From Eledone cirrhosa (lineage: Eukaryota), in assembly GCA_964016885.1 (NCBI GenBank), contig OZ024742.1, positions 200,322,001-200,386,000 of the forward strand: 64,000 nt of DNA, in the 5' to 3' direction. Below, one piece after another: positions 11,701 to 48,700 of this stretch (positions are counted from its first letter, which is position 1; each line of letters begins with the position of its first letter). Under the pieces are notes generated by a model that worked only from the letters and a program-made list of their open reading frames with translations, did not search any database and was not told the origin of the DNA. The translations under genes and the position numbers were made by a program.

Positions 11701-14700
11701 GTTGATGGTGTGTGTGTATTTTGTTTTCTAGTTTTCTTCACAGACAAATTCCAGTCTTTCGTTTTATTTATACCTTTATGGTACACCTGTCTTTTGTGTG
11801 TTTAAATTCACCTGATAAATCCAGTAATGTCCACAACTCTTCTATAGTAAAATTTTGTTGTATACCCAATTGAATATTAGCTAATAACCCATTTTCTATA
11901 GCAATGTTTGAACAAAATTTTAATAATTTCATATTTTGTTGAATTTACCTGTATTTACCTGTAATTAGAGTCACTTTGAGACAAAAATTATGGAATAGAA
12001 TTGGTTGAGAACCTTTCGTTAAATTTTCTTCCAAAAATCACATTAATATGTTGATAAATAAAACAGTTAGAGTTGTTTAATGAAACCAGACTAAATTTAT
12101 GATTATTATGTTAGAAATTAATTGAAACACATAAGGGGTGTACTTTGGTTAGAAATATGGTAACGAAAGGGTTAAACATGAAAATTAAGAATATTTACTT
12201 TTTATCTCTTATATATTTTTATTCATTTTATATTTAGTATTGTTGTTTAGCCTCAGTTAGAAAAGGAAGGGCAGTGCTCATTCAGGGCTCTCAAATTACA
12301 TGGTAGGGAGAAAGGTACCTTCACACAGAAGATCTGCCACTCAATACTTGCAATAGAGAGGTTTCCACTAAAAGCACCCAAAGGCCAGGTGACGGTGTTA
12401 AACTGGGTGACTGATTGATTAAGTTTACCACCCAAGTAAGCCACAATGGGATTTGAACCTAGAACCCAAAGAACCAGAACAAATACCACAATACATTGTA
12501 CTTGATGATTCAACAACCCTGTCAATCAACTGCACTGGATCAGTACTTTGACTTCAAATGTATGAAAGGCAGAGTTAATGTTGCTATGATTTGCAGAATC
12601 TCAGAACAAATGCCACAAAGCATTTTGTCAATATAAATATAAACAGAAGGCTGGACTTTCACCAGCTGAGGCCCTAGGCTATACAAAATATGAGATCTTT
12701 CTTTAAAAAATATGTAAATTTATACATGATTTCTAACTTTTATATTAATTTTAGATCCTTGCTGTTAATAATGAGAATAGTGTTTAATTTCTGGCGTACA
12801 GGATTGGTATGCCATATACACCAAGATTACAGGACATAACCATCATACAAACAGGGAAATTTGTTTTGATAAATGTCACTGAGTAACTTTGGAGAAATAA
12901 GTATTTTCAAGGAGAAATGTAGGATTAGAACTCGGGACCTTGTGACTGAAAAAAGAACTTCTTATTGTAGCAACATGACTGATAGGAAATGCATTGTGTG
13001 TATGCGTATGTTTGTGTGGGTGAATTAGAGATATATCATAAATACACAGGGCATATTATGTTTGATTCATCGCCATATCATTTAATGTCCATTTTTCCAT
13101 GCTTGCATGGGTTAGATGAGTTGTCTAAATGTGAGCTAAGCCAGAGCAGATGACCGCCTCCAGCTCACACTGGACTGATTTGGGCTTGGTTTCTATGGCT
13201 GGATGCCCTACTTAACGCCAACCACATTTACAGTGTGGACTGGGTGCTTTCTGTCGTGACACCTACACAACCACATTTATAGTGTGGACTGGGTGCTTTT
13301 TGTTGTGATACCTACACAACCACTTTATTGACTTCAAATGTATGAAAGGTGTGGGCTGGGTGTTTTTTGTTGTGACATTATATTAAAAAAAGCAAACAAT
13401 CAAAAAGCCTAATGACACTATGGACAAATACTTTCCATTATAGTCATGGCTTGACAAATTTCTTGTGGGTGGAATTTGGTAGACAGAAACTGCAGAAGCC
13501 TGTCTTGTGTGTGTGTGTGTGTGTGTTAATTTGAGTGCCTCTGTTCACATCCTGTAACTTAGTGGTTCGACAAAAAAAGAAATCAATAAAATAAATACTG
13601 GGATTGATATGATTGATTAAAATCCTGGTGGCCGAGCATGGCCACAGTCTAATGACTGAAACTGGTAAAAGAGTAAAACCATAAATTTAAACTTACATCA
13701 TCATCACCAGCCTCATCATCATCATCATCATCATCATCGTCGTCGTCATCATCATCACTATCACTACTGCCATCATCTTTCTCCTTCTCATCGTCGTCAT
13801 CCTCCTCATCTTCCTCTTCTCCGTCATCATCATCATCATCATCACCTTCTACTTTATCCTCTCCATCTTCTTCCTCTTCACTGCTGCTACCTGAAACCTC
13901 ATCATCAAGGGGCTCACTGTCATCACTCTCAGCATCTTCAAACAGAGGTTTACGTTTGGTTTCAGGGCTAAGAGTCTCTCCAGCTTCATTCTCTGAGGAT
14001 GCCTCCTCCTGTATGATAAATTATACTATACTATATATATATACATAAATGAAGTAATTCCGTCGGAAAGGTCCAGGAAAAAAGAGTGCTCTATGTAGGT
14101 TACAGAGCTTATTAGTTATGTAATAAACAACATAAGATAATTATTTCATTTACCAGTGGTTTCTTGAAAGCAAACAAATTTGCTTTCAGTCATCAGAATG
14201 AAAATATCCTGGTGTATTTATTGACAGTGGAATTGAAAAACGGTTTTTCAATTCCACTGTCAATAAATACACCAGGATTTTTTCATTCTGATGACTGAAA
14301 GCAAATTTGTTTGCTTTCAAGAAACCACTGGTAAATGAAATAATTATCTTATGTTGTTTATTACATAACTATATATATACATACACAGAATACCATATTT
14401 CCCAGACTGGAAGATGCTCAGGACATCACCAAATTTTTGGGGGATAAAAAAAAACCGCTGGCTTATTTTGGGAAAAGAATAGCATCTTCCACATGGGAAA
14501 TATGGTATAGCATCATCCTCATCACTGATTTATGCCAATTTTCCATGCTTATATGGGTTAGATGGGTTGTCACATTCTGTGACCAGACAGGTCAGATGAC
14601 TATGTTTTGCTCATATGTTCCATTTTGGCATGGTTCCTACAAATAGCTGTCCTTCCTAATGCCAACCACTCTACAGTGTGCGTTGGGTGCATTTTAATGG

Positions 14701-17700
14701 GGTACCAGCACTACCACTTTTCAACATTATATCCTCAGCCAAGCTGGGGAAGTAGTGCTATAATAATCCCTGCAACACTATCAAGCCCCTTACCCCACCA
14801 AAATAAACCAGTTAATCATCATTACAATACTTATTCCTAACATAGCTAACAAAAAACCCCAAACTAGTTGATTATATCATCCCCAGTATTTCACTGATAT
14901 TTTATTTTATCAATTATGGAAGAATGAGAGATAAATTAGACCTCAGTTACAGTAAAAAGTCATAACAAATACTGCAAAGCATTTTGTCTGACATTCTAAC
15001 AATTTTGCAAAATAATAATCGTCATCATACATCAAAACTAGCGAAGTTGTCATATACAACATAATGAATACTTGTTACCCTATGCTGTATCCATTTATTT
15101 GCAAACTGCTTTACAGAGTGTACTGGGTGCATTTTATTGTGACATCAGCACAAAGTATTGATGCCCTCAACATGACTGTATTCATAAAGTAGTACATTTA
15201 TTTTTCAATAAATTAATTAATTAAGAATGTTGAGTGATTTATTAAAATTACCAATTATTTTGTTACTTAGCTAATATAAAATTATCGAAAAATTTTCATT
15301 TAAATAACAACCCTTTATGAGTGGTTTTGTTTCATAGAATCAAAGCCAGTTTTAGCTGGGTTTGAATCAAAAAAGTTAAAACATCACTAGCTAAGACTGA
15401 ACATTTACCATTCGCCCTGCCCTAGACATTGAGCCAATCACTCTCTTTTTCATCTGTGGCCTAATAGTCCTTGCTTTTTCCCTACCTTTCCTTTCATTTA
15501 TGGCATTTATAATCCTTTCCTCAACTTCATATACAGCCAGATCTGCCCTTCTTCACCTCCTCCCCCTCTGTTCATTACATCATTTTGTTTTATTCATTTT
15601 TTCTCGTATTTCCATCATTGTATAATTTCTTTTTTGTAAAATTTAGTTGATATAATTTATTTATGCATAATTGATTAAATAAAAAAAATATATACATATA
15701 AATTTAATGCCCCTATAGTTTCCTCTATCCAGGGCATCTCCTTTGGCATTGTAACAGTTGACGATGCTGCTGCTGCTACACCAGTCATTTGGTATGACTC
15801 CATTCTGTATTGCTTGGTTTACTATCCGGGTGACCATAGTATGTCCCACCATTCCAAATATATATATAAAACAAATCAATCAACAAAAAACAGAACTTAC
15901 ATCATCTGACTCACTGGAACTTTCTTGAACTAGCTTCTTTTCTTTTGGTTTCTGCTTTACCTTCTCTTTTTCTTTTGGAGTTGTTTGTTCTTGTTTCATT
16001 CTCTTCTTCTCAACTCTTTTCTTCAATCTTAAAACATGATTAATCATAAATTATATTAAGCACATCATACACACAGCAAACATTATCATTTGAAATCTGA
16101 TTTCTCTGCTAGTAAGTAAAGCTAAATCAGTCTCAAGCCAGGCTCGTTAGGCAGGTGCCTCTCCTGGCATGAAGCGACTGACAGTACATGACTTCCCGCT
16201 GGACAGGAAGCCAGTCCATCACAGGGTTAAACCTCCAGCTGTTACTGGTACTCATTTTTTAGCTGAGTATACTGGAGCAACATGAAATGAAGTGTTTTGC
16301 TCAAGAACATAAAACGCAACCCAGCCCAGGAACCAAACCTATGACATTACGTTCATAAATCCAACACCATTACCACTAGGCCTCCACAGTAAGGATTGGA
16401 CAAAAAGGTGTAAATATTCTATACAGCTATACATAGTTTCAATGTATATATTCTATTTAATGTGACTTTATTCTCACCAGAAAACAAGACAGGTAGATGG
16501 CCATAAATGCTAAAACTTTACTTCAACACATGTTAGTGATTAGTGACTTTAGAGTACTAGATAGATGTACACAGAAGCTTAAGTTGTTCTGGAGAAGAAA
16601 GATATAGACGCTTAGAGAACCATCAAACAGGCAAAGGTTTAGAGACATAATGGAAGACTGGAAAGTCCTGCAAGTCAATATACTGAGAACCACAGGTGAG
16701 TGCTGTGGATTGGGAAAGGTTCCAAACAGAAAGAGGGTGGTGTGATGGAACTGTACTGTAGCCATAAAATCTAAGAGACAGTAAAAGACAAACCAGTAAA
16801 AGAATTTTTAAAAAAATAGACATACAAAGAAAGACAAAGCAAAATGATAGATCTACTTACCTCTGTCTTTGACGATGGCTTAATTCATTGAAGTCTTTTT
16901 TTTCTAGAAATTATATAAAACAAAAACAATCCATCAAAGACAACATTAAAAAAAATAAATAAATATATCATCATTCAATACAGTTTCCACATCTCCAATT
17001 TCATTCAGAAGCAATTTGAAGCTATGGTAAAAGAGACTTGCTCAAGATGCCATGCAGTGGGATTGAACCTGGAACCTTGATAGTGCTCGGCCATGACTGT
17101 GGCCATTCATATATATGTGATTATAGTAGAGTACTTTACTATTATCTTTGATAAGGTGAGAAAAGCTCTATAAACAATACAATCCCCGGTCCAACAGGAG
17201 TTTAAAACGGATGACTAAGTCATCGACAGATAAAGTTGTTGAAGACAGCTCAGGTAGCAGAGCATTAATACCCATGCTAGCGTGGAAGATAGACGTTAAA
17301 TGATGATGATGATTTATTATTACAAAAGTGGATAAAGTGTTGATCGTATGGTCATAATGTCATGGGTGGGATTCGTGGACCAGATGGCAGTGTTCTTGAG
17401 CAAAATATTGCTCATGTTGCTCCAGTACTTTCAGCTGAAAATGAGTACCAGCAGTAACTTGATGCCAAAACCAAAAGATAAGCAAAATGTGGCCCACCTG
17501 ACATGTCCAGTACATACTAGCATGGAAAAACAGACATCAAATGATGATGATGACAATATATATCATCATCATCATTTCATTTTACGTCTGCTTTTTCTCT
17601 GCTTGCAAGGGTGGGACGGGAACTGATTCTGGCTTGATTTCTACAGCTGGATGCCCTTCCTAACACCAACCTCATTTACAGTGAGTGCTGGGTGCTTTTT

Positions 17701-20700
17701 TGCCGTGGCACCTCCACGACCACTTTGCAGTGGAATGATATGGACCCCAGTCCCTATCATCTCATTTCTACAGCTGAGTAAACTGGAGCAATGTGAAATA
17801 AAGTGACTTGCTCGAGGAAACAACACATCACCTGGTCTGAGAATTGAACTTACAAGATTTCGATTGCAAGGCCAATGCTCTAACCACTAAGCCATATATT
17901 TATATATATATATTATTATAATTGTAAGCTATCGCCGTATTTTGACTAAAGAAATTATTTAGCCTGATAGTGGGGTTAAGAACCCTCGGAGAAATGGAAA
18001 AAGATGAGTATTGACATACATGGGAGTCGAACCCATGTCTTTGGTTATCCGGACCACTGTGCTACCTTAGAAGCTATAAACTTAACGACTGTAATGTCAA
18101 GTAAGAATATTTTCCATTTCTCCGAGGGTTCTTAACCCCACTATCAGGCTAAATAATTTCTTTAATTTCTTTAGTCAAAATACGGCGATAGCTTACATTT
18201 AAAATAATTTCAAACCCACTCGCTGTTTCGAAAATATTCTTACTTGATATATATATATAGTAATAATAATAAATTAGAAGACTAAAATCCAAAGCGGGCT
18301 CGATAAGGATAAATATATATATATACATATGAATGTATATACAACTTGTCTGTGATCTATTTATTGTTGTTTTTGTTATAGGATGGAGAAAGAGCAACAA
18401 TTGTGAAATTAAAAAGACTCAACAGAAAGACCACCTACTGAAGTTGACAGGTAATTAGCTGAAAGGGTGATTAATGATATGAAAGTAGTATAATCATTGA
18501 GACTAAAGATAACTAGTGATGTAAGACCGATACTAGTCATTCACAGAGCCAGCATTAGAGAAAGATCACTGAACTATAAGTCTTAACATTCCTTACTGTA
18601 TTACATAAAAAAGTTTAGTTAACTACAAATTTTCACAATGATCTGTCCATTAGTAAAGATACTGTAAACAATTGAATTAACAAACCCATTTTTATATATT
18701 TTCTGCTAAATCTATACAGGATATTAAGAATTAAAGATATTTGTATAATCAAATAAAATACATAATTTCTTGTGTTCAACAAATTCATTGCCAAACAACT
18801 TTGCTGTATTGCAGCAGTGGGGAAATATTGAAAATGGTGGACAGGCACATATGATGTTATGACCTGTTACATAATTTGGTGTGGGTGAGTGTGGAATATG
18901 TAGTGGAAAATGCAGATTTAGAAATTTTCTTAGTGTGGTCAGAGCAATAAGTGTCTAAAACTAGGTTTGTCAGCTTTCCAAACTATAAATCAAAACTATT
19001 TCACTTGGGAGAATGTTTAAGTGGTATCATGTCTGGCAGGTGTAAAATCAGTCGGCTGGAAACAGACGTGATATTACTTAACTCGACAGAAGGTGACCTC
19101 CAACTTGCACTTGATACGTTTGATGCACAGTGCACTCTACATATGAATGGAGTTCCACTGAAGCAGGTGGAAAAGTTCAAGTATCTTGGGACTGTGTTCA
19201 TGAGTGATGGAAGGCAGGAGGCTGAATTAAGAGCAAGAATTGCAGGAGCTGGTGCAGTAATGTGCCAACTTCAACATTTGGTAATCTGAAGGGTGGTAGG
19301 TGTAACAGCCAAACTCACTATCTTCAATTTGGTATTTGTGCCAACCCTTACCTATGGTCATGAATATTGGGTAATGACCGAAAGTAAACGATCGGGAATA
19401 CAAGCAGCTGAAATGAGGTTCCTCCGAAGTGTCTTTGGAGTAACGTTACTCGATAGAGTCTGTAACTTGGTGATCAGACAGTCACTCCAGGTAGAGCTGC
19501 TATTTCTCTGAATTGAGAGATCACAGCTTCGATATTACAAGCATGTGATTAGAATGTCTTAGGACAGATTTTTATGGGCAAAACCAATTGGCAGGATACC
19601 CAGGAGTAGACCCCCAAGCAAGATGATTAGATAACATCCATGAACTCAGCTGGTTTCACTTGGGGATCCAGCTGGATGAGTTGGAGATGGCTGTTTCTGA
19701 CAGGATCCGCTGGAAGGAGTGTTTGAAGACTCTGCCCCCAGACCCACTCAGGAATCAGTGGGCGAAGGACTAAGAATGTGGCACACATCACAGGGCTAGT
19801 CTGGTACTAAATACCCAGCTGCTGGATCTGGTCATTCACATAATCAATGCAAGTGTCACCCTGTATGTCTGGTGTTTCAGTATTATCATCAACTGCTTTA
19901 TTTCTTCTTTCTTACCTTTAAAACCGGGAACTGTATAGTTGCCATCTCCACACTCAGTGTATCTTGGGTATTTTAAACCTGGTGAAGCCCATACCTCATT
20001 TGGAGAGAGTGAGGGAAGAGCATGAAAAATCGACCCCAGTACTGGACAAATTCTTTTATTATCCCTGAAAAGCAAAGTTGACCTTAGTGGGATTTGAACT
20101 CACAACAATTACTAAGGTATTTAACATGACCATATGACTGCCAATTCGCTGCCTCTCATCAACTGCTACAAAGGCAAAATAGATGCATCTACAGAAGTAT
20201 CGGACCAGGTTATAAAAGTAACAGAGTTATAGCACAATCAATTAGTTTGGATTTGTGCCAATGATTTCTTACTAGAGCTACAATTCTTAGACACAACACC
20301 TAACAATCATTAACCATTTTGTCATCATATTTCTTTCTAACGAAAGACAGACTTTGATTTTCAAATAATTTTGAAAATAACCAAGAATTTGGAGAGATCT
20401 AGTAATATAATTTTATCATTATTAAGCTAGGTTCCTATATAATATTACAATGGAAGAATTAAATTTAGATATTAACACTTTAACTGAAACATTCTCTGCT
20501 CCAGTTTTTCTCAGTCTTCCTCTACTGTAGCTTCCCTCCATTAGCATCTAACTCTTTTTCATCCAACAATCAGCTTCCATGTGCATCACCAGCACAGTTT
20601 TGTCCCTTTTGCAAACTACATCTGATTCCGCTTAAACCCAGTTTTTCTATCAGTTCATCCACGCTGTTGCTAATGCATACTAACACCACATTAAGAGGAA

Positions 20701-22206
20701 GCTCGATTCAGTTCTCTCATCATTTACTGCCATGCAACATCACACTTCTTGTACAGATACAATCTACCTTTCACAACGTAGAAACAATCCTCTTGTTATT
20801 AACAGAGGTAATAACCCCTTAACACCTTTTTCTTCCACTACTAATGAGGTCACCTAAGTAAAAGAAACTATAAACTACTTCTATGGTACTTTCTGGGATT
20901 GGAAAAAAAATTATTTCACTGATGATCTTACTACCCACTATTTCTTTGCATCTGCCACATGCAAAGCCTATTTTTTCTGTTTAGCCTGCCTATCTTTCTA
21001 TATATCATCACCATCATTTAACGTCCGTCCATTTTCCCTGCTAGCAAGGATTGGACGGGTCGACACAAAATCAGTACTTAATTGGCTACTGATCGCACAG
21101 ATGGGTCGGTGGCCGAATCTCGTTTACATTTACAGTATATACACACGCACAATTCTGCGAGAGAACCATATCACCCTAACGTAATGAATCCAGTGAATCA
21201 GGCGAGATATTTTCGTTTTTCTTTTATTACGAGATCTATAGTCAGGGACTCACATTGGATGTGCGACTGCATGTCCAGTAACTTAGTGGTTCGATATCAG
21301 CTAAGATGTTCAACATGCTGGCAGTGTAATGAATGAAACCAGTTAAATAATTCATCATACCGTGTGTGTACAACATTAAACGATTTAAAACAAGCGCCAC
21401 TAGGCGATATAATCTAGCAATGTGGCACCTTATATGTTAAATGTATATTTATGAATGAAAATATTTTCGAAGGTGTAAAATACAGTTATATAGATGAAGA
21501 TTTATAAAATATAAGAGGTAACAAGTTTTTTCTCAGTAATTTATAGCTGTGGAAATGAGATTACGTCTCGGTATGAAATCTGATATTGGTCGCTATCAAA
21601 CTGAAATTGAACGAACTTACTTTTAATCGAATAAAATTTAAAAAAAACATCTATTTAAAACGAATAAGTTTTTGAGAGAGAGAGAGAGAGTCGTTTATAT
21701 AAATACAGCAATAAATAAAAGTTGGATCAAGACACCAGTAGGGTGTGATGTGGTGGTGGCCATGCCGATAGTTTAACCCTTTGCAATCCAAACTGCTTGA
21801 AACCAACTTTAGTTTTTTATGATACGAAGCTGTTTATTTTAAGGGGTTCATGTTTATCTAAAAACACGCCATCATAATTTAACGTAAGAACATTTAAGTT
21901 TCAAACAGCTTCAAAACGAAAAAGTTACACAACTAAATCCCACCAAATTCTTGATTATCTTTAAAATGGTTTGAAAATTAGACGACAAGTTATATTAGGA
22001 ATATAAGAAATGTGTTAAACGAAATATGATCTACGAGACACAATCAGTTAAAACACGTGGTGTGAAATGAGACAAAATCCTCACGTCTGTTTAATGTAAA
22101 TTATTCTTTTACCTCGTAAAGCTTTCTGAAACTTCGGTTCTGACTGTTTCCTAGCTTTCCTTCCAGGTCCTGATTTTGGCCGTTCTAAATCTCTTTTTCT
22201 TCCCAT
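223..22206 (-). CDS. NOP2: NOP2/NOL1 (p120) 28S rRNA cytosine-C5 methyltransferase; 5' part, 11 coding exons (1234 nt) in window, gene continues beyond position 1
   Basis: Exons 22113-22206, 16861-16903, 15901-16027, 13697-14008, 10117-10172, 8817-8902, 7689-7782, 5765-5867, 4077-4166, 2639-2726 and 223-363 splice in frame. The peptide matches recalled NOP2 motifs ([13 protein letters not shown]; [15 protein letters not shown]; [10 protein letters not shown]; GATPEYL; [11 protein letters not shown]). Confidence 0.97.
620..2580. mobile_element. Cluster of about 10 tRNA-derived SINE copies (family A, about 190-230 bp), both orientations
   Basis: A-box TGGCAGTATCGG, B-box GAGTTCAAATCC, core GCCTTTCATCCTTACGGGGTCGATAAAATAAAGTACCAG, (ATT)n tail; good + copy 1025-1215, good - copy 2380-2575. 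Confidence 0.9.
2639..2726 (-). CDS. NOP2: NOP2 coding exon 10 ([30 protein letters not shown])
   Basis: Near-identical to the recalled human segment; AG acceptor, GTAAGT donor. Confidence 0.97.
4077..4166 (-). CDS. NOP2: NOP2 coding exon 9 ([30 protein letters not shown])
   Basis: Hallmark [15 protein letters not shown] motif; AG acceptor, GTGAG donor. Confidence 0.97.
5765..5867 (-). CDS. NOP2: NOP2 coding exon 8 ([34 protein letters not shown])
   Basis: Conserved SR.EY...L.KDL..YY.Y motif; canonical AG/GT. Confidence 0.95.
7317..7502. mobile_element. Short TTAA-type MITE (relatives at 125-180 and 42672-42875)
   Basis: Ends CCCTTTAGCATTT…AAATGC(T/C)A..GGGTTAA. Confidence 0.65.
7689..7782 (-). 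CDS. NOP2: NOP2 coding exon 7 ([32 protein letters not shown])
   Basis: Matches the PDL..RI..I..VL..F motif; AC acceptor, GTAAGT donor. Confidence 0.92.
7783..8816 (-). other. U12-type (minor spliceosome) AT-AC intron of NOP2, 1034 nt
   Basis: 5' end ATATCCTTTT; branch-site-like TTTTCTATAAC (7792-7802) about 9 nt before the terminal AC; the junction G|AA restores frame. Confidence 0.9.
8572..8786 (-). mobile_element. SINE family A copy inside the U12 intron
   Basis: Reverse complement of the family A consensus. Confidence 0.85.
8817..8902 (-). CDS. NOP2: NOP2 coding exon 6 ([28 protein letters not shown]), ends at a U12 AT donor
   Basis: CAG acceptor; followed by ATATCCTTT; FxLP motif. Confidence 0.9.
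9880..10072 (-). mobile_element. SINE family A copy
   Basis: Reverse complement of the consensus. Confidence 0.88.
10117..10172 (-). CDS. NOP2: NOP2 coding exon 5 ([19 protein letters not shown])
   Basis: LLPIE motif conserved in NOP2; CAG acceptor, GTGAGT donor. Confidence 0.92.
10960..12171 (+). mobile_element. Non-autonomous piggyBac-type element (internal deletion derivative)
   Basis: TTAA on both sides (10956-10959, 12172-12175); TIRs CCCTTTTGTTACCA / TGGTAACGAAAGGG; acidic N-terminal ORF 11145-11423 and Cys-rich C-terminal remnant ([18 protein letters not shown], about 11452-11505). Confidence 0.85.
13697..14008 (-). CDS. NOP2: NOP2 coding exon 4, acidic D/E-rich tract (104 codons)
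   Basis: CAG acceptor, GTAAGT donor, 312 nt open frame of GAT/GAA/GAG codons typical of the NOP2 acidic N-terminal region. Confidence 0.9.
14144..14203 (-). ncRNA. Mirror copy of the hammerhead motif on the NOP2 sense strand
   Basis: Exact reverse complement of 14281-14340. Confidence 0.72.
14281..14340 (+). ncRNA. Minimal type-I hammerhead ribozyme motif
   Basis: TTTCATT-CTGATGA-[CT GAAAGCAAA TTTG TTTGCTTTC AA]-GAAA-CCACTG-GTA/AATGAAA: 7-bp stem I, 10-bp stem II, near-palindromic stem III, GUA site. Confidence 0.75.
15700..15852 (-). mobile_element. Short internal fragment of the 58938-61890 RTE family
   Basis: [11 protein letters not shown]…YRGIK, near-identical to 60805-60960. Confidence 0.8.
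15901..16027 (-). CDS. NOP2: NOP2 coding exon 3 (K/E-rich: [22 protein letters not shown]...SSSESDD)
   Basis: AG acceptor, GTAAGT donor, open frame, phase consistent. Confidence 0.85.
16861..16903 (-). CDS. NOP2: NOP2 coding exon 2 ([15 protein letters not shown])
   Basis: TTTCTAG acceptor, GTAAGT donor; phase 1 in and phase 2 out fit the neighbours. Confidence 0.85.
17923..18197. repeat. Inverted repeat (about 80-nt arms) enclosing a tRNA-like segment; related fold-back at 27701-27812
   Basis: TGTAAGCTATCGCCG…GGAAAA versus TTTTCC…CGGCGATAGCTTACA. Confidence 0.9.
18990..19775 (+). mobile_element. 3' fragment of a second RTE-type LINE family
   Basis: [31 protein letters not shown] peptides; related copies elsewhere in the window. 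Confidence 0.85.
22113..22206 (-). CDS. NOP2: NOP2 coding exon 1 ([31 protein letters not shown])
   Basis: ATG at 22206; N-terminus resembles human [21 protein letters not shown]; donor GAG|GTAAAA, phase 1. Confidence 0.93.
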
Positions 22207-22709
22207 GTCTGTTTGTTAATTTGATTAAAATAAATTAAATTAAAATCGATCTGAATAATCAACACGTGTAGAGTGTTGAGTTTTAAACAACTACTTCCTT
22301 TTCAACCCGGATATTATCAACACGATTACCTCCCTTAGACGAACCACCGAGGCAGCGCCTCTTCTAGGTTGCTTGATTTGCTAGAAATAGCAGTCACTCT
22401 CACTAGAATAACATCCTTGGCTATTAAGCCCCAATGGAGACATTGGGGCACCGACGATGTCAATATCTTGGGAATTTAAACATGGCAGAATCCTTGTACA
22501 GGTCGGAACAAAGCCATTTCTTCCACAGAGAGAGAGAGAGAGAGAGAAAGACTGGGATAAAGAGAGAGAGAAAGAGAGGATGAATCAATTCAGTACTAAG
22601 TTGGTATTTTATTTATCGACCTCGAAAGGATGAAAAGCAAAGTTAAATGTGGTGTGATTTGAATTCAGAGTGCATAGAGCCAGAATGAATATCGTGAATC
22701 ATTCTCTCT

Positions 22710-28300: not shown

Positions 28301-30673
28301 CAATAACAAAAACTATGGTGGAAGTTCCGTTAAATGCACCGCTCGTCCAAGCAATTAATGTTGTCTAGTGTGTCAATGGGTACAATAGAGAAGCTAATTG
28401 TGATCTCATAACCAAAGCAAGACATCTGACAACAGTGTCAGATGTCTTGTTTTACATGATATATATAGAGAGCTAGCGAGAGTAGAAAACAGGGATACAG
28501 AGAGAATTAACCTGTAGGCTGAAGGTGGAGTACATATACTGACTGAAGTGGCAGATAAATAATGAGATATTTAAAAGAACACTGGAGCCATGCACACACA
28601 TACATACAAGTAAGCATACACACACGCATACAGACAAATATATATATCATCATCACTGTTTTACGTCCATTTTTCCACGCTAGCATGCGTTAGACGAGTT
28701 GTCCTGTTGTGGGCAATGCTAGGTCAGGTGACCATGTCTTGCACGTACAGTTCTGTAAATATTTTTATAACTGATATAAAGCACTCGACAAGTATTTGGA
28801 GTAGATATACGATATATATATATACGATATTAACAAATGGAAACTATTTATAAAACCATATTTATTTCATTATACATATTTCAAGGATACCAAGTTAAAT
28901 TATGGTATGCCTTCATCAGACAAAATACAATATATACCAGTTTTATAAATAAACATTGACGTACCCTTTTCAAAATGCCACCGTTAGTTTTGGCATATGT
29001 ATAATTAAATAAATATGGTTTTATAAATATAGTTTCCATTTGTTAATATCGTATATCTACTCCAAATACTTGTCGAGTGCTTTATATCAGTTATAAAAAT
29101 ATTTACTTGTTGTATCCCAACAATTTAAATAGAACTTTTGCATATATACTCACACACACACATTTGTATATATACCCATATATACCTACACAGACATGTT
29201 TATATACACACACACATATATAGAGACATAAGTAAATATTTGATTATAGCAGCCATGGGCAAACTGCGGCCTGTGGGCTGCATGTGGCCACTGGCATTCT
29301 GAATGGCCTGCTTAACTTTAAAATTGCCTTGAATCTTTTAGTAGTGAAGACCATCTTATGATGAGGCACATCCTATGTGGCTCACTACTTGAAAAAAAAG
29401 TTGCCCATGCCTGGTAGCATCGATACAATTTCTTGTAAAGACCCCCTTCCGTCACAAATGACTATGGGATTTCCACCTAGAAAGTTACCCTTCCGAAACA
29501 CAAGTCTGGGTAATGTTGTTTGTGAAAGAACAGTAGTCACCCATGCATATCAGTCTCCTTTCTCTGTGCCACTGATGTTGTCCAAGGGAAAGGCAATGGC
29601 TGATACAGTTGAGTACACTGGAGCAACGTGAAATAAAGTGTTTTGCTCAAGAGCACAGGGCATTGCCCAGTTTGGGAATCAAACTAACAACCCTTTGATT
29701 GTGAATCCAACATTCTAACCACGGAATTAAATAAACATATATGAAAATATATTATTTTTCTCAAATTACTTTATTTTAATACTAAGAAAAAATAGATTGA
29801 GAAGAAAGAAATGTAAAATAAGAAAATTTAAGAAAACGGAAAAGGAAGGGACAGGCAAGGGTTCTAGTGTCACAGAAGAATGGGGAGGGCTTGGCGGTAT
29901 TGGGCTGCACCCCACGGACAAGACGGCAAAAGCACACCCCCGGACAATGCTCAGTGACACCTGTTGCCTGTTGCAACAGCTATCCCACCTCATTGGGCTC
30001 CTACCTCAGACGGGCTGCTGACGTTCCGATTTTGTGGAGGAGCTCAGCAGTATGGGTTCCAATTACACCTGAGGTCTCGACAGTGACAGTGCGAAGAGGA
30101 ACGGCTGGACAATCCCCTATATTTGTTTATCTTCCTTTCCTCTGCATTGTAGGCCGCAGTACCAGGGTTACTATGTTTGTAGTCTATATTAAATTCATCA
30201 TTTCTTCAATCTATGGGGAACTACGTAGATTTGACATGTTTATATACTCAGTGTGTACAGCTTACAAACAGATATGTCTTTATTGAGGCGTAGTGAATTC
30301 ATTTATTTTAATACAGTTAAACAATTTATTTACTTACCTGCTGTTACCACAGTGGTAAACATATACTTCCAAATTTACTTGCCATGTGACAGATAACACT
30401 AATATAATAATTGTGCAGCCTTTCTGTCCGTCTGTCACACATAAACACTGTTTCATCAAAAATGTAAAAAATTTTATGCACAACTTATGGAACACGTGTA
30501 TGACAAAAATTACACATTATTAAGAACCTAACTTTATGCCCTTATTTTTACATTGTTCAACATTTTATTTGACACTAGTTTGAATACATATGAAGGGATC
30601 ATTGTACCACAGAACCAGATGGCATTCTATCGATTGAGTATTCATAATCAAAGCATCTGTGAAAACATTAAGT

Positions 30674-45700: not shown

Positions 45701-48700
45701 GGCACAAGGCCATCAAAGTTGATTAAATTAACCTTGGTGTATTACTGGTGTTTAATTTTATTGATCCTGTAAGTATGAAAGGCAAAGCTAACCTCAGAAT
45801 GTAAAGGGATGTAACTATATGTTGCAAAGCATGTTATCTGACACTCTAATAATAATGGTTTCTTATGCAGGCCAGCAATTTGGGAGGAGGGGAAAGTCGA
45901 TTAAATTGACCCCAGTGCGTGACTGGTACTTTATTTTACCGACCCCGTAAGGATGAAAGGCAAAGTTAACCTCGGTGGTATTTGAACTTAGATCATAAAG
46001 GGCCGTAACTCTATGCGTCAAAGCATGGCGTCCGACCCTCTACAGATACTGCCAAATAATAATAATAATGATTTCTTTAGTATTTCTTTTTTCTTTCTTT
46101 TCTCATTTATGTATGTATGTATTTATTTATTTAATAATAATGCATTTCTTCCTGTTGCAGAACAACTATGTTGAATATATTGACTTCAAGAACAAACATA
46201 TAAAAAAGCTTCACTTAAGTCCTAAAGCTTGTTCCTTCAGCACTGGCTTGATGGTTACAGATTTAGCCTTTTGGAAGAAGAAGAACATTACATCTCGACT
46301 AGTGTACTGGATGACACTTAACACTAAGTAGGTATACTTGGAGTGCTGTTCAGTGGTGATGGTTGTGGTGGTGATGATGGTAGTGGTTGGGGGCTATTGA
46401 TGGTTGTGGTAGTTGTGGAGGTGGTGATGGTAATGGTGGTGCTGGTAATGGTGTTGGTGGTGGTTGCAGGGAGGGCTATGATGGCGATAATAGTAGTGGG
46501 GATGGTAGTGGTTGGGGGGTTGGTGGTGGTGATGGTGATAGTTGTAATGCTGGTGGTAGTGGTGGTGGTTGTGATGTTGGTGGTGATGGTTAGGGTGCTT
46601 GGGAAGGTGGTGGTGCTGGTGATAGTTGTGATGGTAGTGATGGTGATAATAGTGGTAGTGGTGGTGCTGATAGTTGTGGTGGTAGTGGTGGTGGTGGTGG
46701 TTGTAATGATGGTTGTGGTGGTGATGATAGTGGTGAGAATGGTAGTGGTTGGGGGTTGGTGGTGGTGGTGATAGTTGTGATGGTGGTGGTGGTGATGTTA
46801 GAGATGATGGTAGTGATAAAATTATTGTAATGATCTTGAAATATTGCAGATGAATCTGGATGACAGATAAAGAGTGTATATGAGGTGGGGGAGGGTCTTT
46901 ATGCTGGAGCTGTGAATGGAGACTCCTGTTTTTAAATATTAGCAAGTTGTGGGAGGAGTACATTTATTGAAAAGTATTAAGAAAAGAAATTACTTTACTG
47001 TTAAGTCAAAGACAGAAGCGCAGCATTCAAGAACCTTTTCAAGGCCCCTGAGACTGGTAGATAGATGAAGAAATGTATCCTGAAGTTGGAGATCTAAGGC
47101 CAAGTGGGGGTGTTAAACCAGTGGTTGACGTTAGGAAGGGCACCAAGCTATAGAAAACTTACCAAAGGAACCAGAGGCCTGTTTGGCATCATCTGTAGAG
47201 CTAGTGTCGTGACAAAACACATTCAGTTCACCTTGTAAAGTGCAGAAAGGAATCTGAGAGATTAGTGGTACAAATTAAGTACTGACGTGGTTTGTAATGA
47301 CTCATCGAACTTTTGTAAGTAGAGAAAACGGACGTTAAATGATATATATATATTATACAGTAAAATGACAGGAGGCTGGACAGTTTGAGTTCCCTTAATT
47401 ATTTATTTCTGCAAACACTATGCACATTTTAGTGGCCAGGTTGCATATGAATCTGGTGACATAATCAGGTGTATATTGCATACTAATTGTATACGAAAGG
47501 AATGATGGTAAACACATTCCAAAAGTCTTTAAGGAAAAAGGCAAAGAAAAACGTATATATATATATATTTTTTCACTAGCTCTGACAGTTGGCAGGTGAA
47601 CAGTGAGCTGAACTGATGAAGGGTGATACCCCAAAACATTAGTGTCTGCAGTTCTGTTTACATGCCAACACAAGAGCAAGAATGAGGGGCTCACATTCTA
47701 CTGACATGGCTTTAAAAATGAGGCTTGTTTGCATAATTGCAAACGAATCGAATGTTATTATTAATATTCAAAAAACTCATTTATTATATTCGGCCATGTA
47801 GAGCAAACATTTTTTTTTTATTTGAATGTAGCAAAGCCAGCCATTTATCGATCGTATATTGGAAACTGACTGGCCAGTCTGCTGATATGCAATTCTGGCT
47901 GATCAGTGGATCTGCTAATATGCAGATCAGACTGATCAGCTAGTCTGCTAATATGCAAATCAGGCTGATCAGTCACTGTATATTTCCACTAGCTCTGACA
48001 GTTGGCAGGTGAACAGTGAGCTGTGCTGATGAAGGGTGATACCCCAAAACATTAGTGTCTGCAGTTCTGTTTATATGCTAACACAAGAGCAAGAATGAGG
48101 AGCTCATTCTACTGACATGGCTTTAAAAATGAGGCTTGTTTGCATAGTTACAAACGAATCGTATGTTATTAATATTCGAAAAACTCAGATTACACTTATT
48201 ATATATATATATATATATATATATTTAAAAGAATAAAGGTGTAACACACGAGTTATGATATATTGGTAAAAGGAAAAGAAAATGCTGACAAATTGTTCCC
48301 AGTGAAAAATAGTTTAATTAGGAATAAGTAAAAATTAGTAATAGTATTGGTTAGTAATCAGTTTTAATTTTAAGATTTTACCAGTTGCGCATTTCTAATG
48401 CTTTTCAAAAATAATTTTGAGATAGAGTGCCCGTGATGTTTGCTCTAATCAGATTAGAGCAAACATCACGGGCGCTCTATCTCAAAATTATTTTTGAAAA
48501 GCATTAGAAATGCGCAACTGGTAAAACTTAAAACCAAAACTGAATACTAACCAATACTATTACTAATTTTTACTTATTCCTAATTAAATTATTTGTCACT
48601 GGGAACAATTTGTCAGCATTTTCTTTTCCTTTTACCAATATATATATATATATAGTAGTAATAGGTAGGTAAACAATTCTAATGTGTAGAGCAACTCAAG

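Follow-up and report, generated by a model that had tools for sequence, protein, structure and literature searches.

An almost perfect palindrome that spells a putative hammerhead ribozyme on each strand lies in an intron of NOP2 in the window (the whole 64,000-nucleotide stretch of Eledone cirrhosa DNA analysed here), which raises the question of whether it controls that gene or is only carried by it. The original prediction was that the NOP2 pre-mRNA transcribes the antisense arm first and locks the ribozyme in a duplex, and that ADAR editing of this duplex could modulate cleavage or splicing. We conclude, with a probability of roughly 0.9, that the locus is an inverted, 5′-truncated end of a Hydra-clade Penelope-like element (PLE), likely formed in two short rounds of reverse transcription, and that the ribozyme it carries is predicted to show no activity there. 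The insert is likely to be an ordinary one, with the ribozyme as its passenger and not as a regulator of NOP2.

The host gene can be recognized from the exon at 194–409 on the minus strand, for which NOP2 structures are the best match (E values of 2e-18 to 6e-16). A spliced contig from run X4 joins 22286–22113, a 43-nt piece, 16027–15900 and the sequence from 14007 onward, and this exon order places the insert in intron 3 (Table 1). The predicted position near the exon-4 acceptor was therefore correct: the palindrome ends about 105 nt away from it, and a tail that belongs to the insert reaches to about 40 nt. Owing to the target duplication, the last 38 bases of the intron are unchanged from the state before insertion. 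Exons 3 and 4 are spliced normally in the run X4 contig, which comes from an animal that was either a carrier or a non-carrier of the insertion; contigs of this run behave like RNA and mix all copies of the family, and hence hold no information on editing.

Repeats of other kinds also occur in the gene. In exon 4, (GAT)n repeats underlie a long encoded tract of Asp and Glu. Intron 1 contains an inverted repeat at 17912–18208, between TA tracts and around a tRNA-like stretch, which is possibly a MITE, and a decayed fragment of a non-LTR reverse transcriptase at 19000–19700, which we take to be RTE-like.

Table 1 Features of the insert and of the surrounding part of NOP2 (positions in the window)
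Feature	Position	Strand	Remark
NOP2 exon 1	22113–22286	-	Start MGRK... at about 22161; from spliced contig
NOP2 exon 2, 43 nt	16861–16903	-	Position inferred from splice signals and a gap left by the spliced contig
NOP2 exon 3	about 15901–16027	-	From spliced contig
NOP2 exon 4, acidic tract	13695–14008	-	Lower boundary read from the sequence
Target-site duplication, left copy	14034–14047	.	Same 14 letters as 14370–14383; (TA)n tract
Tail, 3′ extension of the pLTR end	14048–14112	-	Common to many copies; in full-length parents continues into the 5′ leader and ORF
5′-truncated pLTR arm in sense orientation on the NOP2 strand	14113–14241	-	
Type-I minimal hammerhead, sense copy in NOP2 pre-mRNA	14144–14203	-	Predicted cut 14151/14150; complete pairing with the other arm predicted
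Head-to-head junction, centre base 14242	14227–14257	.	Unique in the genome
5′-truncated pLTR arm without tail	14243–14371	+	First arm to be transcribed in NOP2 pre-mRNA, in antisense orientation
Second hammerhead, sense only in a plus-strand transcript	14281–14340	+	C10.1 at 14295, A11.1 at 14320; predicted cut 14333/14334
Target-site duplication, right copy	14370–14383	.	First two letters overlap the arm end

The structure of the insert is compatible with a recent arrival. The palindrome has arms of 129 nt each, 1 nt longer than first described, with a 1-nt gap between them and 99% complementarity; they mismatch at 1 of 129 positions, a difference that fits a young insertion and not an old regulatory element. 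Folding of the palindrome is predicted to yield −200.8 kcal/mol (z = −35.8). The complete insert (14048–14369) is larger than this palindrome and includes a 65-nt tail, present in many genomic copies, on the left arm only. It is bounded by a 14-bp target duplication with identical letters in its two copies, which lies in (TA)n sequence of such low complexity that the exact length is uncertain. A search allowing at most one mismatch found the head-to-head centre at a single locus genome-wide, so that each palindrome appears to have been built at its own site. Both outer junctions are present, without any difference, on short-read contigs of run X1 (13850–14061 and 14356–14582), a run that is possibly the assembly’s own source. 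The palindrome centre is spanned by none of the reads and contigs listed, and no empty-site allele was found among the joints listed.

Within the palindrome, the 60 nt at 14281–14340 on the plus strand are identical to 14203–14144 on the minus strand. As originally predicted, each strand can be read as a complete type-I hammerhead, with a 7-bp stem I (UUUCAUU/AAUGAAA), CUGAUGA, a 10-bp stem II, GAAA and GUA; stem III is ACCA-C-UGGU, and the expected C·A base is formed by C10.1 facing A11.1. The designation ‘twin’ is apt for the DNA and fails for RNA, in which each strand has one sense hammerhead. A search with the hammerhead covariance models of Rfam gave no match in the whole window (E ≤ 1) or in a 91-nt stretch (E ≤ 10), and the call consequently rests on motif, covariation and context. 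Covariation among genomic copies, which had been proposed as a test, was present: 5 of the 10 pairs of stem II change on both sides, 93.5% of cells are paired and 0 of 500 shuffles reach the score, in a set of 30 from 98 distinct copies that was hand-picked to span subfamilies and represents few independent events. Because stem II covaries between subfamilies, the motif is likely to be a genuine hammerhead of the source element.

The columns of the core (CUGANGA, GAAA and NUH) are 92–100% conserved, except N7, across about 112–127 arms. Position 10.1 is variable (C in 69, U in 28, A in 14 and a gap in 1 of 112 arms) and faces a nearly fixed A (120 of 124) at position 11.1; the C·A base is thus a subfamily variant, and the canonical G10.1–C11.1 pair is not a feature of this family. 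Other hammerhead families have A-U, G-U, G-C or A·G at these positions, and those found at the same loci share the layout with different palindromic stems III, in a scan that selects for pairing. We left out a MAFFT alignment across distant families, in which stem III was misaligned. The predicted energy of the dimer (−34.6 against 2 × −12.8 kcal/mol) favours dimerization by about 9 kcal/mol and supports the view that this is a minimal hammerhead of the dimer type.

The element is abundant. One arm returned 1,230 first-look candidates from the genome and the homolog search 1,732 relatives, and a 26-nt piece of the 3′ half of the ribozyme had 2,291 exact genomic matches (0 for a reversed control). 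The first 100 of these 2,291 matches include 13 head-to-head pairs within 400 nt, and extrapolation from them gives an estimate of roughly 300 close inverted copies in the genome. The family is also contained in run X5, from another organism, which does not cover the NOP2 flanks.

A Penelope pLTR origin had been suggested for the arms, and the search for RT- and GIY-YIG-encoding parents was successful. Full-length parents at two loci (L062 and L064) are partial tandems in the order pLTR, tail, leader, ORF, long microsatellite-rich 3′ UTR and pLTR. A match to the arm or the tail lies upstream of the ORF start at 28 of 30 loci (L081–L110), and the stretch from tail to ORF gave 483 first-look candidates. 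None of the 10 longest candidates that were fetched has an unbroken parent ORF, and all copies seen are broken. A Pfam search with the RT and EN pieces gave no RT or GIY-YIG match; the motifs that we read are, for the RT (L090), MRWKA (RWK), SDKTKN (DKT in place of DKG) and YRDDG, and, for the C-terminal EN (L148), CSCRKPDEC (a CxCX5C linker), a VVY..YVG core without cysteines, NCSLC (CxxC) and CPH (CxH). The Hydra clade is defined, in the part of PMC8557442 that deals with it, by RWK and DKT in the RT and by a C-terminal EN with a CxCX5C linker, no CCHH, and CxxC and CxH near a conserved E and N. We dropped Neptune as the parent clade because CCHH, which marks the EN of the Neptune and Poseidon clades, is absent and the Hydra motifs fit. 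The (TA)n target preference and the canonical hammerhead by which Hydra elements are also recognized are both found here, the former in the flanks of copies, as are the traits of EN+ PLEs (5′ truncation, inverted copies and an optional tail at one end). Judged by its motifs and by a by-eye comparison with a published protein, the parent is a Hydra-clade PLE (EN+).

How such an insert forms is suggested by its single tail. The ends of copies fall into two classes that are about equally common, pLTR ends (52) and tail ends (53), and head-to-head pairs combine one of each. In the first set of 38 pairs, 7 could not be classified and the other 31 all join a tailed arm to an untailed one. Further loci, which comprised 60 rows with 1 duplicate dropped and 8 unclassified, show the same pattern in 49 of 51 distinct classifiable pairs, the exceptions being one tail–tail and one short–short pair. 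The rule therefore holds in 80 of 82 classifiable inverted copies, with 15 further pairs unclassed, and it extends to inversions of several kilobases that include the ORF. The arms within a locus differ by 4.3% (26 pairs), compared with 8.3% between loci, and share rare variants. A one-sided tail is described qualitatively in the relevant parts of PMC8557442 and PMC3846280; we found no study that counts it in the open-access literature searched, including the supplements of PMC8557442 only. Another PLE is reported to nick and extend both strands in vitro, with two internal RT start sites that bound its tail (PMC11167929, in the sections used here).

We hypothesize that the RT/GIY-YIG protein of the parent would nick both target strands about 14 bp apart in the (TA)n tract. 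The opposite target strands would then give rise to one cDNA each, the first starting from the tail end and the second from the pLTR end; both would stop after 130–195 nt and be joined head to head at their truncated ends. The antisense arm would then come first in any transcript that runs over the junction and would zip up the sense arm, and the resulting hairpin would probably be edited by ADAR like other inverted repeats and removed with the intron. Whether the one-tail rule is the footprint of an asymmetric two-primer reaction, with a fixed start site for each target strand, we would put at even odds. If it is, the hundreds of independent events in one genome would make this family a ready means of testing in vivo the second-strand step in Penelope transposition, which is unsolved. 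With the tails counted, what the literature mentions qualitatively becomes a constraint on the completion of integration that can be tested.

The RNA that serves as template may be considered in the light of where copies are truncated. A scan for truncation at the predicted cut site, which would be a trace of past cleavage, gave 86 pattern matches, against 58, 71 and 120 at three control sites; among inspected loci, 14/30, 12/20, 11/20 and 9/30 were classed as truncations by script, and 18/30 by eye for the cut site. The resulting estimates of 5′ truncations, about 52 for the cut site against 35–39 for the controls with patterns of unequal stringency, show no clear spike, which is in line with uncleaved RNA as the main template. 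Six loci (L111, L117, L118, L125, L127 and L131) have mini-palindromes in which both arms start at most 2–3 nt from the predicted cut, and the controls are biased against symmetric cases of this kind.

We also considered the tail as a built-in anti-ribozyme strand and rejected this idea, as its duplex is no better than that of shuffled tails (p about 0.12). In 4 of 5 parent copies, the tail is predicted to take the 3′ strand of stem I (probability near 1); a helix between tail and ribozyme is not general in other families (p = 0.06–0.83). At the NOP2 locus, the tail end at 14048–14060 is complementary at 11 of 12 positions to the strand of the cut site (14139–14154, minus strand) and ends at the predicted helix base, a match that is not significant against shuffles.

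What remains of the regulatory proposal is the masking itself. The ‘antisense arm first’ duplex is predicted, with a cost of about +77 kcal/mol for folding the ribozyme within the pre-mRNA, but it is not specific to NOP2, as any head-to-head copy has the same order of arms, whichever strand is transcribed. ADAR editing might open the duplex and let the hammerhead cleave the NOP2 pre-mRNA, given that the core is intact, the stems covary in the family and the duplex is in principle an ideal substrate. We consider this close to negligible in probability: in a model in which an edited A cannot pair and the ribozyme’s own A residues are spared, the predicted penalty is +49 kcal/mol at 50% editing and still +24 kcal/mol at 100%, so that, with an opening cost that persists when every other A of the duplex is edited, editing cannot plausibly switch the ribozyme on. 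Editing would moreover hit the core adenosines, with a modelled chance of 0.03 that all five escape at 50% editing. In cis, the one sense copy lacks a partner for dimerization, and related PLE hammerheads are described as weak cleavers even as dimers (PMC4209133) or as cleaving only with the protein of the element (PMC11167929), in the passages of these papers that concern cleavage. The estimated 300 or so close inverted copies have the same geometry, which argues against a NOP2-specific switch. A milder effect, in which an insert of the same origin modestly affects NOP2 splicing through a TA duplex over the branch region and is tuned by editing, seems to us unlikely. It is favoured by a model in which the duplicated TA tracts pair to within about 15–25 nt of the acceptor, and by the account in part of PMC5625713 of long intronic hairpins as prime ADAR targets, heavily so in octopus. 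However, the preserved last 38 nt of the intron, the normally spliced contig (whether from a carrier or a non-carrier), the youth suggested by the single arm mismatch and about ten other inverted-repeat matches of at least 60 nt in the NOP2 introns of the window all speak against it.

The origin of the palindrome could also be read differently. Hundreds of similar palindromes, several of which have arms cut at similar places, might be copies of a non-autonomous mobile unit that resembles a MITE or a retrozyme and spreads in hairpin form; yet the centre at 14242 occurs once in the genome, centres and truncation points vary from copy to copy, and the one-tail pattern extends to the ORF-bearing inversions of several kilobases. 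Non-LTR retrozymes are defined, in the section of bioRxiv 10.64898/2026.07.22.740005 used here, by a tandem array with a hammerhead in each unit, whereas this locus has a single head-to-head pair and no head-to-tail tandem array, and we regard a mobile unit as very improbable. An assembly or chimeric-read fold-back would account for a centre that no listed contig spans. It would also mirror the tail and the flank, but the tail is one-sided, the flanks are repeated in direct orientation, the two arms mismatch at a single position and both outer junctions are found unchanged on contigs of run X1 (the possible assembly source); an artefact is hardly credible. We therefore retain the reading of an inverted, truncated PLE end, for which a role in the control of NOP2 is most likely nil. 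The hairpin itself is likely to be an ADAR substrate, on the general rule given in PMC5625713. The locus is a clean example of the way in which Penelope elements would provide this AT-rich genome with perfect intronic hairpins, by the hundreds, which are probably a source of double-stranded RNA for ADAR.

Other inverted elements lie in the window and at the loci inspected. A second Penelope family with a hammerhead is represented by an inverted copy at 28755–29106, with stem III AUAUGUAU and a core at 28919 on the minus strand; tail sequence lies beside both of its arms and is partial on the left. A 387-bp, 96% palindrome between (TA)n tracts (48258–48643) has no CUGANGA core that we could see and is also found inserted into the 3′ UTR of one of the full-length parents (L064); it is a different TA-targeting element. 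Hammerhead PLEs of at least five families are nested within one another’s (TA)n tracts (L004, L010, L017, L044, L051, L063, L079 and L117). The tails of these families start with a hairpin that ends in GAG(U/C)(G/A)CU, with ACUC/GAGU in some families and GCUC/GAGC in others, and this hairpin is a candidate protein-binding or initiation signal.

We compared the insert with known systems as these are presented in the portions of the cited papers on which we drew. The palindromic Harbinger repeat of Xenopus (Porath et al. 2017, PMC5625713) is likewise a self-folding repeat, of roughly 200 nt, and an ADAR substrate, a property that is only predicted here; unlike the insert, Harbinger is a DNA transposon without a ribozyme. 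The minimal hammerheads of PLEs (PMC4209133) resemble ours in their type I fold, long helix II, short palindromic helix III and dimer design, and opposite-strand pairs of motifs about 100–700 bp apart were already known among them. They differ in having G10.1–C11.1, where the present family has a variable N10.1 (C, U or A) facing an almost invariant A, and in the central C·C mismatch that stem III would have in the dimer. Hydra-1_Obim of Octopus bimaculoides (Craig et al. 2021, PMC8557442) has stem III acca-a-tggt, from which ours differs only at the central base, and (TA)n targets; it is a different family, with a leader, stems I and II and a protein that differ by eye. Compared with the Hydra clade as a whole, the tail is 65–67 nt rather than 30–40, the 3′ UTR is long and rich in microsatellites, with about 3.4–4.6 kb between the ribozymes of parents, and the cleavage site is read as GUA.

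PAc, a Poseidon element of Anolis (Frangieh et al. 2024, PMC11167929), has in common with this family two start sites that bound the tail, AT-rich targets and a likeness in its main template, which is uncleaved RNA. It belongs to another clade, and in vitro its two start sites were used without a preference for either strand, unlike in the inverted copies here, almost all of which have one of each. Penelope of Adineta vaga (Arkhipova et al. 2013, PMC3846280), for which self-priming on an antisense template was proposed, has target duplications of 8–10 bp compared with about 14 bp here, where the insert carries no ORF; it is alike in its head-to-head inverted pLTRs, its optional one-sided tail and the palindromes at its junctions.
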